IMG/VR virus record: IMGVR_UViG_2565956727_000003
Location: 1-36,978 of that record
Source: a virus
Lineage: Duplodnaviria > Heunggongvirae > Uroviricota > Caudoviricetes
Reading direction: 5' to 3' (one strand)
DNA: 36,978 nt
Part shown: positions 30,701 to 33,700 of the stretch, one piece after another
Layout: each line of letters opens with the position of its first letter
Position numbering within the stretch: the stretch's first letter is position 1
Program-made: the position numbers

Positions 30701-33700
30701 AGCTTTCACGTACCACTCAGGCTGTTTTTCTATTTTCCAGTGATGCTTACCCACGATTAGCCTCATCGTTCTGTGGTTTCTGTTAATCGATTTATCCATT
30801 AGATTTTTCATAAAGCTCAGGTTTAAATGGCAACCGTCCGCAAGTTCTATATGCAGCTTCTGCTGCACGTCCTTTTGGAATTAACTGGCCCGGACGGTTT
30901 CGCCACTGATAAACGGCTTCAGTTGTTATGCCGAAAAAAGCAGCAACTTTCTCAATACTGCCGAAGTAGCTTTCGATATCGTCAGTTGTCATACGCCCTC
31001 CAAACTAAGTTTTGTTAGATGCTAATTACAAATCTATCTTTGGTCAATAAAAACTAAGATTACTTAGCAATTAAAGAAATGGTGCTCCTATGGAAACGGT
31101 TGGTCAGCGTATAAAAGCTCTGAGAAGAGTTACCAGAACGTCCCAGAAAGAATTGGGTAAATTTTGTGGAGTAAGCGACGTTGCTGTGGGGTACTGGGAG
31201 AAAGACATCAATACCCCTGGTGGGGAGGCACTTTCGAAATTAGCGAAGTTCTTCAATACGTCAATAGATTACATTCTTTATGGTGCTGAGTTTGAAGGCA
31301 AACTCGTCACAAACATGCGCAGAGTTCCTGTAATATCGTGGGTTCAGGCTGGGCAGTTTACTGAGTGCAGGGCAGCAGAAGTGTTTAGTGAAGTGGACAA
31401 GTGGGTAGATACATCATTAAAGGTTGGTGATAACTCATTTGCATTAGAGGTTAAAGGTGACTCCATGACTAACCCTAATGGCCTCCCAACAATACCAGAA
31501 GGCGCAACAGTGATTGTAGATCCAGATGCAGAACCTCGTCATGGAAAAATAGTCATCGCTCGACTTGATGGAACAAACGAAGCTACAGTAAAAAAATTAG
31601 TCATCGATGGCCCTCAAAAGTTTTTAGTGCCATTAAATCCTCGGTATCCCAACATCCCTATCAATGGTAATTGCCTTATCATTGGTGTAGTCAAAGGAGT
31701 TCAATACGAACTCTAAGACCTCTCTTCTCTAACTAAGGCACCGAACTAAGAAAAGTTTGGTGTTTTCTCTTGCCATAATAACTAAGTTAAGTTAGATTTT
31801 ATATCAAAGATAACGAACAGGCAGGACGCTCACGAAGTAGCCGCCTGGGGCATATGAAGTCCACGATGATTCGTTAGCAACAAAAAAGCGCCCTACAGGA
31901 CGCTTAGCTCTTTAACAATCTGGTCCCCATCAACAAGTAACTGATAACTTGAGGAGGTGTGAAATGCACAAAACAGAACCCAAAATCGTCGCGCCTGGCT
32001 ACACAGATGAGGAAATTTACGAGTGGATGACAAAGAAGCTGGCAGCCATAAACCAGCTTCGTGAATTGCTGTCTTATCGACAGGAAACAATAGGCTCCTT
32101 AAAAAAACTGGATCAGGAAATCACTGTTTTATCACAGGATGCTACTTTAGATATTGTGCAGACAAATTAGGATCCCATTCATTTTCGTCAAAATCATCAA
32201 AGTGATGAATTTGTGATCTCCAGTCTCGATAATCTAAAAATTTCTGGGCGGTTACGCTTATTTTATCAAGCGTGAGTTCATCCTGAATTGAAAGAAGAAG
32301 TTCATCAAATTTCATCTCATTAATCTGTTTTGGCATCCAGTGATGCTTCATCAGAATAAGGTGAACCAGAGCCTTTTTCCCATTCAACTGATTATAGGGA
32401 GTGCCGAATTTCTTCCGGTGCTCATGCAAGACAAGATCCAGAAGAGTAAGTAATGTTGCCCTTGATTCCACTTTACTTATTTCGACTGATGACACTACCC
32501 CACTGATTTCAATGCCCCGATACTTTCCAACATTTTCACAGTGGGATTTGTACAGCGTATAGATATTACCGGACATTTCTTTTCCTTTTGCGTTGTTGGG
32601 GATAACCAGATTAACCGAATCCTTGTTGTTGGGGAATAACCAGGTCCACCTCGCCTGATGTGGCTAAAAGCAGGCACATAACAGCTAAGTATTTTCAACC
32701 AGAGAGAATCCTTAGCGTTGTGGTGAATGCGGCTCAGCGCACGCGGGTTAAGGTTGAGGCTGACAGTCGACCTTCTGTGGATACCCACCCGCCTGGTGTG
32801 CAACCTTCGCCAGGCACCGGGAGGCACCCGGCACCACAACTTTATGCTGTGTGTAGTCTTGGCGGTACCAGCTTGTACCCTTGCTTCCGGCTGGTACCGT
32901 CCTTTTTACAAAACAGAGAAGAGCATCACCGGACGACGGGCTCATAACCCAATCCATCCGGGCGGCAGTCACCGCAGGTGTTCTTCTCTGTTTTGTGGAG
33001 AAACTAACCGACCTTGCAGGGTCGATATGATGAGGAGCAGCAAAATGGCTAGCGAACGCAGTACTGATGTGCAGGCATTTATCGGGGAGCTGGACGGCGG
33101 CGTATTTGAAACCAAAATCGGCGCAGTTCTCAGTGAAGTCGCTTCCGGTGTGATGAACACGAAAACCAAAGGTAAGGTCTCGCTCAACCTAGAAATCGAA
33201 CCGTTTGATGAGAACCGAGTGAAAATCAAACACAAACTCTCATATGTTCGCCCGACTAACCGCGGGAAAATTTCCGAAGAAGACACCACCGAAACGCCGA
33301 TGTATGTCAATCGCGGTGGTCGCCTGACTATTCTGCAGGAAGACCAGGGACAATTACTGACTCTTGCCGGTGGACCTGACGGAAAACTCCGCACAGCAGG
33401 TCGTTAATATCGTTTTTAATAAACTGATTATTCATCTTATCACTGAATATCTTTATATAGTGAGGACTTATTATGTCTCAGAACTTAGACGCAACCGCAA
33501 TTAATCAAATCCATGCCCTTATTTCTGCTCAGGGTGTTAATGAAATTATCAGTAAGATTGGTGCCGATGCTGTGGCATTGCCTGAGAATTTCCGCATTCA
33601 TGATCTGGAAAAATTTAATTTAAATCGCTTCCGTTTCCGTGGTGCGCTTTCCACTGCCAGCATCGATGACTTTACCCGTTATTCTAAAGATCTTGCAGAT

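Follow-up and report, generated by a model that had tools for sequence, protein, structure and literature searches.

A recurrent convergent gene pair of the ECs1072 and YdfC families in the early-left leader of a lambdoid prophage

Introduction

What do two small convergent genes beside the repressor gene of a lambdoid prophage do, and do they work together? This question is raised by a stretch of viral DNA of 36,978 nt (IMG/VR record IMGVR_UViG_2565956727_000003, referred to here at its full length as the window), in which a plus-strand gene of 68 codons and a minus-strand gene of 144 codons meet tail to tail between cI and the early-left genes. The region is that of an SfIV/SfV/ST64B-like lambdoid prophage of E. 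coli or Shigella. An original prediction, made from the sequence of the window, had described both products as unrecognisable, had placed the genes in a position equivalent to that of rexAB, and had proposed an exclusion or toxin-antitoxin-like module expressed in the lysogen. Here we describe the families to which the two genes belong, their arrangement in other prophages, the slot that they occupy, and the explanations that may account for them.

Results

Genes of the two families meet tail to tail, with overlapping ends, at unrelated prophage sites

The two open reading frames (ORFs), their 3' overlap of 29 nt and a moderately AT-rich composition were all seen as predicted, with a GC content of 0.35-0.42 across 32000-32600 versus 0.52-0.60 in the adjoining 32600-33000. 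The 144-aa protein, which belongs to the ECs1072 family, was found to be a full-length member of NCBIfam NF033230 (157.8 bits over profile positions 2-142 of 142, the curated cut-off being 70 bits), and it also matched phrog_5286. The 68-aa protein matched phrog_1744 and aligned by BLASTP with K-12 YdfC (b1573, prophage Qin) at 42% identity over 66 of its 68 residues (E 1e-17). Both proteins are thus recognisable, contrary to the earlier description; NF033230 itself is defined as a "hypothetical equivalog" with no function assigned.

In most loci with readable DNA around an ECs1072-family gene, a convergent YdfC-family ORF overlapped its 3' end. The pair was present at at least four different prophage sites: between cI and the early-left genes in the window and SfIV and in Yersinia and Pectobacterium prophages; between cII/YdaT and the replication gene O in prophage Sp4 of O157 Sakai and in a second E. 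coli prophage (L015); between Q and the holin gene in Salmonella phage ST64B (partner Sb50) and Klebsiella phage KPP5665-2 (partner GP45); and inside the early operon of Pantoea P2-like prophages. At all paired loci the small gene pointed the same way as the lytic operon around it and the large gene pointed against that operon, a constant polarity that suggests a function confined to the lysogen and switched off at induction.

The small partners are related to one another across these sites. They share an N-terminal motif, (E/Q)P-x-(I/F)-x(2,3)-G-x-(T/S/N)-x(2)-(E/Q)-L-x(2)-W-(L/M), and a hidden Markov model (HMM) built without the window sequence recovered the 68-aa ORF with an E value of 4.9e-9, the next best of the 687 window ORFs being at 0.8. 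K-12 YdfC matched the partner-family HMM at about 1e-13, and the Pantoea partner independently matched phrog_1744. The register of the overlap was also conserved, in that the C-terminal DP(I/S/T) of the partners is the antisense reading of the invariant EWDP of the large protein; the small ORF of the window stops one codon before this reading (DPI). In ST64B, the small gene has its own promoter, and the span from that promoter to the terminator is antisense to the whole large gene.

Because the same families recur, convergent and overlapping, in at least four unrelated contexts, we regard the pair as a genuine functional unit. Its convergent pairing and the polarity rule appear to be undescribed so far, the families themselves being already catalogued as hypothetical.

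Several of these genes are missing from deposited records. The large genes of ST64B (L020, AY055382; 2845-3279, plus strand) and KPP5665-2 (L021; about 2845-3291, plus strand) are unannotated, and the YdfC-family partner of ECs1072/ECs_5703 in O157 Sakai (L007, NC_002695; 19168-19677, plus strand) is absent from the RefSeq annotation. The last of these is an ORF of 169 aa (phrog_8304) that runs antisense through most of the large gene.

Both proteins are conserved and unlike known toxins and antitoxins

All of the ECs1072-family loci examined lie inside prophage or phage genomes. An exhaustive profile search over 1.8 billion representatives gave about 76 clusters at 50% identity, all of about 145-155 aa, and the members that were placed taxonomically all belonged to the Enterobacterales, those named being from Escherichia, Salmonella, Yersinia, Pectobacterium, Pantoea and Erwiniaceae. 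Distant members from Sakai, Yersinia and Pantoea also passed NF033230. Residues R54, L64, G66, A69 and H72 are nearly invariant in the family and W134 is invariant. The 144-aa protein was modelled as all-helical and soluble by AlphaFold2 (AF2; predicted local distance difference test, pLDDT, 78; predicted template modelling score, pTM, 0.77), with no membrane segments apparent, as judged solely by inspection of the model. The ratio of nonsynonymous to synonymous substitution rates (dN/dS) for the 144-aa gene was 0.21-0.24, which indicates that it is under purifying selection.

For the 68-aa protein, the AF2 model (pLDDT 85) consisted of an extended N-terminus (residues 1-14) with the conserved motif, followed by a single helix (residues 15-67). 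In the part of the small gene outside the overlap, dN/dS was 0.155 and 0.04 with dS saturated, and on these substitution rates the small gene, too, is under purifying selection. The possibility that the small ORF is spurious, a by-product of coding on the other strand, was considered and rejected on the cross-family motif, the HMM score and dN/dS. The run of seven A residues within the gene differs in length among alleles: public assemblies contain small-gene alleles of 80 aa and 61 aa beside an intact 144-aa gene, and in the 80-aa allele of E. albertii (L027), the single allele aligned at the DNA level, the run is A8. The C-terminal third of the small protein seems dispensable, because these frameshift alleles occur with the large gene intact, and the run is possibly a contingency site, a slippage site or a sign of relaxed C-terminal constraint.

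Neither protein matched Pfam or PADLOC-DB 2.0 in profile searches (no PADLOC families at E <=1). The profile of the large family had no sequence match in the PDB, and Foldseek against BFVD returned nothing with E < 0.9. The DefensePredictor supplements do not list the ECs1072 family, and no functional study was found in the literature on ECs1072, the WP accessions or the functions of the SfIV/SfV immunity region.

These results bear on the proposal that the pair stabilises the prophage as a toxin-antitoxin or addiction module, with the large protein as toxin and the small protein or the antisense transcript as antidote, or the reverse. Convergent transcripts that overlap at their 3' ends are known from the type I loci bsrG/SR4, txpA/RatA and par of pAD1. 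The window pair resembles such loci in its prophage location and its gene geometry, which together with the candidate terminators predicts convergent transcripts with overlapping 3' ends, each antisense to the other; the pair is also mobile and often linked. However, type I systems combine a small hydrophobic peptide with a non-coding RNA, whereas the window carries two conserved, predicted soluble proteins; the large one is a 144-aa helical protein in the model and no small membrane peptide, and the small gene is protein-coding rather than a non-coding antitoxin. Neither is there the bicistronic co-directional operon of a type II system, a known toxin or antitoxin domain, or strict co-occurrence, and a charge or isoelectric-point pattern of basic toxin and acidic antidote was not present in the pair. 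Furthermore, YdfC is the product of the third gene of the Qin dicBF operon, has no known function, and was retained in a version of that operon lacking dicF and dicB whose induction was not growth-inhibitory (PMC5069750). Because there is no operon and no family match, neither partner is obligatory and the ydfC-carrying operon is non-inhibitory, a classic toxin-antitoxin reading of the original prediction is very unlikely to be correct.

The pair is cargo in an exchangeable slot downstream of pL

An intrinsic terminator separates the cI transcript from the cassette. It is followed by the best pL candidate of the region, which is overlapped by AACTAAG operator-like repeats that, as read from the sequence, also occur between cro and cI. 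The cassette comes after oL/pL, within the leader sequence of the early-left genes, which is the position of lambda N or of Qin ydfABC. Because the cI terminator and then the pL candidate precede the cassette, the locus is not the rexAB position; the 144-aa gene, on the strand opposite to cI, faces pL and therefore cannot be co-transcribed with cI. What remains of the comparison is an accessory function adjoining a lambdoid immunity region and presumed to be expressed in the lysogen. In contrast, rexAB lies between cI and oL, is read from the strand of cI as part of its transcript, and has no homology to the window genes, neither product of which matched it in Pfam or PADLOC.

The limits of the cassette were set by blastn against SfV, SfII, SfIV, PhiR29_1 and mEp460. 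Flanks at 31812-31875 and from 32646 on are conserved and everything between them is exchangeable among related phages, the breakpoints at 31875 and 32646 being common to five phages that carry other cargo. The 64-nt leader that forms the left flank is common to different immunity types. Other cargo in the slot included a plus-strand ORF of 98 aa (SfV), a gene for an HTH_17 protein (mEp460), small ORFs on the minus strand (SfII and 720R4), and unrelated genes of 159-171 aa, also on the minus strand (PhiR29_1, E. coli 00-3076, AR144.2 and APEC O1). By megablast, the stretch 31700-33050 shares 98-99% identity with phages Kati, 569R4 and 689R6; for Shigella phage SfIV the figure is 97.7%. The window cassette, counted as this one subtype, was present in 410 of 5426 complete E. 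coli genomes (about 8%), and it was seen with at least three different cI alleles. The region is thus an autonomous accessory cassette in a hypervariable slot of the pL leader.

Much of what had been taken as the private equipment of the 144-aa gene proved to be part of this slot. Two minus-strand copies of the direct repeat CTGGTTAT(T)CCCCAACAAC do exist, at 32592-32610 and 32625-32643 (chance expectation 0.02 in the window), the proximal one ending 16 nt upstream of the ATG of the 144-aa gene, beside its Shine-Dalgarno sequence. In the subset of cassettes that share this scaffold, neither the distal repeat nor the DNA to its right varies upstream of the different cargos, and the distal repeat, the minus-strand terminator and their flanks are near-identical in related prophages with unrelated minus-strand cargo in the slot. 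The repeats therefore belong to the hotspot backbone. Likewise, the predicted minus-strand terminator is present as a hairpin with a U-run at 31905-31886, stronger on the minus strand than on the plus strand (-11.5 vs -3.9 kcal/mol, centroid), and is scaffold shared with other cargo rather than this gene's own. A second hairpin, at 32060-32035, sits 82 nt past the stop codon of the 144-aa gene and is more stable, with a poorer U-run, than that at 31905-31886; an analogous terminator, that of the large gene, lies inside the small gene of ST64B. Because of this second hairpin, some 144-aa transcripts may end before covering all of the 68-aa gene. The antisense layout of the two genes is itself real and conserved. 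The best candidate promoter for the cargo gene is weak (position weight matrix score 5.25, with 657 equal-or-better sites per window strand), and its -10 position reads TATAAT in the related locus L018, the AR144.2 version.

On the pL transcript, the shared hairpin is followed by GCTCTTTAACAAT, which we take to be an rrn-type boxA. It has a single exact match in the window (0.14 expected with at most one mismatch), and the order of terminator hairpin then GCTCTTTAACAAT on the plus strand was kept in six related loci with four different cargos; no copy with at most one mismatch was found in SfV, SfII, 720R4 or mEp460. Through Nus factors, the hairpin and boxA (31886-31919) may act as an antitermination signal, by which transcription from pL would get across the untranslated antisense cargo.

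In five cassette types of the slot the cargo is flanked by inverted repeats, which all begin at one backbone position, AATCTGG immediately after boxA, and run on into cassette-specific sequence. In the window, the left arm (31917-31934) is a third, inverted copy of the direct repeat, and the inverted repeat is weak, since 61 of 500 shuffles reached its score, compared with 0-2 of 500 in four other cassette types. Transposon-like ends travelling with the module were considered and rejected, as no inverted repeats were consistent around the module in other contexts. Since the gene pair is found elsewhere without them, the repeats are a property of the slot; they could reflect pairing between the 5' and 3' parts of the RNA, protein-binding sites or a mechanism of cassette exchange. 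The shared promoter-repeat region, the shared terminator and boxA, and the cassette-specific inverted repeats may together form a dedicated platform for cargo exchange and expression.

The setting raises a second alternative, in which the pair is a developmental device of the lysis-lysogeny decision with no role in defence: the large gene and its transcript would damp leaky lytic transcription, early or late, in the lysogen, or else its protein would modulate induction and the YdfC-like protein would be an early host-takeover factor. The large gene always lies head-on in essential lytic operons (pL; cII-O of pR; late Q-holin; P2 early), and the pL boxA suggests a need to protect read-through of an untranslated antisense stretch. 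However, transcriptional interference alone would not call for a conserved protein of 145-155 aa, at a dN/dS of about 0.2. The cassette is optional, since sister phages that share the backbone carry other cargo, and a core regulatory element would not usually be combined with three or more immunity types. We consider such a device unlikely.

Relation to Qin and to the Sakai namesake

The likeness to Qin is one of homology and of place, since YdfC is encoded by a promoter-proximal small gene of a repressor-controlled operon of early-left type. The gene order in Qin is dicA-ydfA-ydfB-ydfC, and the 68-aa gene of the window is the first ORF after the pL candidate and leader; both genes are upstream of a long untranslated stretch with a prophage small RNA (sRNA), DicF in Qin and an STnc100-like RNA in the window. 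Qin differs in having no ECs1072-family gene opposite ydfC. The namesake of the large family, in Sakai Sp4, is found at the cII-O site, in contrast to the position beside cI in the window.

Neighbouring features

The features of the window and the inverted repeats of related loci are collected in Table 1. At gathering thresholds, no Rfam match was found in the window; the sRNA match at 43.4 bits is just under the RF02076 gathering score of 47 bits. The sRNA region falls within the conserved right flank, which starts at 32646, and is kept in all sister phages, with 79% identity in ST64B. The plus strand of 32640-33044 folds far better than shuffled sequences (z -8.0), the minus strand giving z -2.75.

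Between the sRNA terminator and yfdP lies a long plus-strand hairpin (32908-32996) with 25-nt arms that are 84% complementary and a loop of 39 nt. An ORF at 32727-33407 on the plus strand prolongs yfdP upstream in frame across the structured RNA region; it is annotated in SfIV as a 226-aa protein, and in sister prophages the Prokaryotic Genome Annotation Pipeline (PGAP) calls it a "frameshifted hypothetical protein". This upstream extension of yfdP is most likely not coding.

A further DNA segment, one frame of which reads PAILTAAPFRGLPQPEAH, is shared by K-12 Qin (L029, 3546-3881) and two loci with an ECs1072-family gene that has no partner (L014, about 4470-4600; L016, about 4660-4760). It lies upstream of dicF in Qin and downstream of both partner-less genes, and may be part of an RNA precursor of the DicF/STnc100 type.

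Table 1. Positions of the gene pair, slot elements and neighbouring genes in the window, and of the inverted repeats in related loci
Feature	Position	Strand	Details
O-like gene	28911-29852	-	
cII-like gene	30197-30868	-	
cro	30792-30992	-	
cI	31090-31716	+	Peptidase_S24 and HTH_3 domains
Intrinsic terminator after cI	31735-31766	+	13-bp stem then UUUUCUCUU; -15.1 kcal/mol, z -3.4
pL candidate	31770-31798	+	TTGCCA-17-TAGATT; score 10.9, best of the region
Conserved 64-nt pL leader	31812-31875	+	Left edge of the slot; from blastn breakpoints
Intrinsic terminator of minus-strand cargo transcripts	31886-31905	-	8-bp stem then UUUUUGUUG
rrn-type boxA (presumed)	31907-31919	+	GCTCTTTAACAAT; directly after the hairpin on the pL transcript
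Inverted repeat, left arm	31917-31934	+	AATCTGG---TCCCCATCAAC; complementary to the proximal repeat 32592-32612
68-aa YdfC-family gene	31964-32170	+	Strong GAGGAGG Shine-Dalgarno sequence; first ORF on the pL transcript
Second terminator-like hairpin, inside the 68-aa gene	32035-32060	-	-15.6 kcal/mol, z -2.9; weak U-run
A7 homopolymer in the 68-aa gene	32101-32107	+	Length variants shift the C-terminus
3' overlap of the 68-aa and 144-aa genes	32142-32170		29 nt
144-aa ECs1072-family gene	32142-32576	-	Oriented against pL
Proximal direct repeat	32592-32612	-	Also right arm of the inverted repeat
Best candidate cargo-gene promoter	32608-32641	-	-35 TTCCCC inside the distal repeat, 17 nt, -10 TAATCT
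Distal direct repeat	32625-32643	-	CTGGTTATTCCCCAACAAC; backbone element common to 5 cassette types
STnc100/PasD-like prophage sRNA with own terminator	32687-32910	+	RF02076, 43.4 bits, E 9.4e-8, full length
Early-left genes yfdP, yfdQ (DUF2303), yfdR	from 33045 onward	+	
Inverted repeats, L003	2606-2631/3160-3185		
Inverted repeats, L017	1942-1967/2496-2521		
Inverted repeats, L018	1692-1710/2503-2520		
Inverted repeats, L019	1944-1967/2484-2507		

Discussion

Our results indicate that the large gene could be expressed solely against pL, an arrangement that plausibly fits expression in the lysogen. Every lytic transcript across the pair would carry the small coding sequence and would at the same time be antisense to the large gene. 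In the scheme that we infer, low-level transcription of the 144-aa gene would occur while pL is repressed, from a weak promoter in the backbone repeat region, and the transcript would end at the hairpins at 32060-32035 and 31905-31886. Once pL fires, upon induction or infection, the boxA-carrying transcript would first yield the 68-aa protein and would then run antisense through the whole 144-aa gene, which would be silenced by transcriptional collision and RNA duplex formation. The small protein, by means of its N-terminal peptide and long helix, would probably bind and neutralise the 144-aa protein already present. On this proposal the 144-aa protein would act in the lysogen only, because it would be shut off and neutralised as soon as pL fires. 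In uninduced cultures of O157 Sakai, an ECs1072 signal was detected by microarray and dropped by more than 4-fold as the cells entered stationary phase (PMC2241611), a pattern that implies that lysogens express the gene during growth.

The likeliest task of the 144-aa protein would be interference with superinfecting phages, with the small gene providing self-immunity to the resident phage. Self-disarming designs are known among prophage exclusion genes. In P22 and lambda, the prophage-expressed sieB gene of the pL region is countered by the sas antisense RNA and by the phage's own small protein, Esc. The window pair, as proposed, would share with sieB-esc both an antisense transcript and a small phage protein as counter, and the sole associative support for exclusion is a SieB-domain gene in the same slot and orientation of a Yersinia prophage (L008). 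The systems differ in that there is no sequence relation (PF14163 matched neither window protein in Pfam) and in that Esc is an in-frame truncated product of sieB, whereas the partner in the window is a separate convergent gene. Interference with superinfection is favoured because the slot is a moron hotspot, because SieB occurs in it in Yersinia, and because such self-disarming designs exist; an exclusion function for the 144-aa protein is nonetheless a guess, if a reasonable one. Combined, the lysogen effector, its antisense silencing in the lytic state, its neutralisation by the small protein and the exclusion role give what we consider the best explanation of the locus, which we put forward tentatively. 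That the pair is an undescribed two-component reader of prophage state, with a lysogen effector (acting, e.g., in exclusion or abortive infection) and an antidote on the antisense lytic transcript, so that it would disarm itself whenever the resident phage turned lytic, seems to us improbable; it would give K-12 YdfC its first function.

Several observations weigh against this explanation. No convincing sigma-70 promoter was found upstream of the 144-aa gene, the best candidate being of a kind common by chance. The microarray support concerns a distant homologue, with a signal that is not necessarily strand-specific, and the slot's other cargo likewise does not consist of known defence genes. 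Frameshifts are tolerated in the C-terminal third of the small protein. Finally, either partner can occur alone: two of the examined loci (L014 and L016) have the large gene without the small one, and YdfC is found without the large gene in Qin and in a plasmid-borne prophage (L028).

The last two points also speak for functional independence of the genes, in which the YdfC-like gene would be an ordinary promoter-proximal early gene, the ECs1072-family gene an unrelated moron prone to insert or to persist tail-to-tail behind it, and their overlap an accident of packing. The comparison of the window with E. albertii (L027) points in the same direction, since the two small genes are almost the same in DNA sequence over their 5' part and the large genes have diverged, with dS of about 0.8, which places a mosaic recombination breakpoint inside the pair. 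However, occurrence at at least four unrelated sites, including the Q-holin region and a P2-like early operon, is unexpected for a lambdoid "early-left" gene, and the polarity and the overlap register are kept although protein identity between pairs falls to about 22-30%. We therefore regard independence as rather unlikely.

A lysogen-confined module remains a plausible idea for the pair. If it is correct, the pair would represent a compact and widespread prophage accessory system, with relatives in Shigella, Salmonella, Klebsiella, Yersinia, Pectobacterium and Pantoea, whose on/off logic would be held in gene geometry, being on in the lysogen and off upon lytic read-through, and it would provide a clean example of self-immunity in a prophage-borne function. 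It would also give a testable function to two uncharacterised families, ECs1072 and YdfC of K-12. Even if the role is not one of defence, the polarity rule across four insertion sites offers a handle for finding further functions that prophages confine to the lysogenic state.

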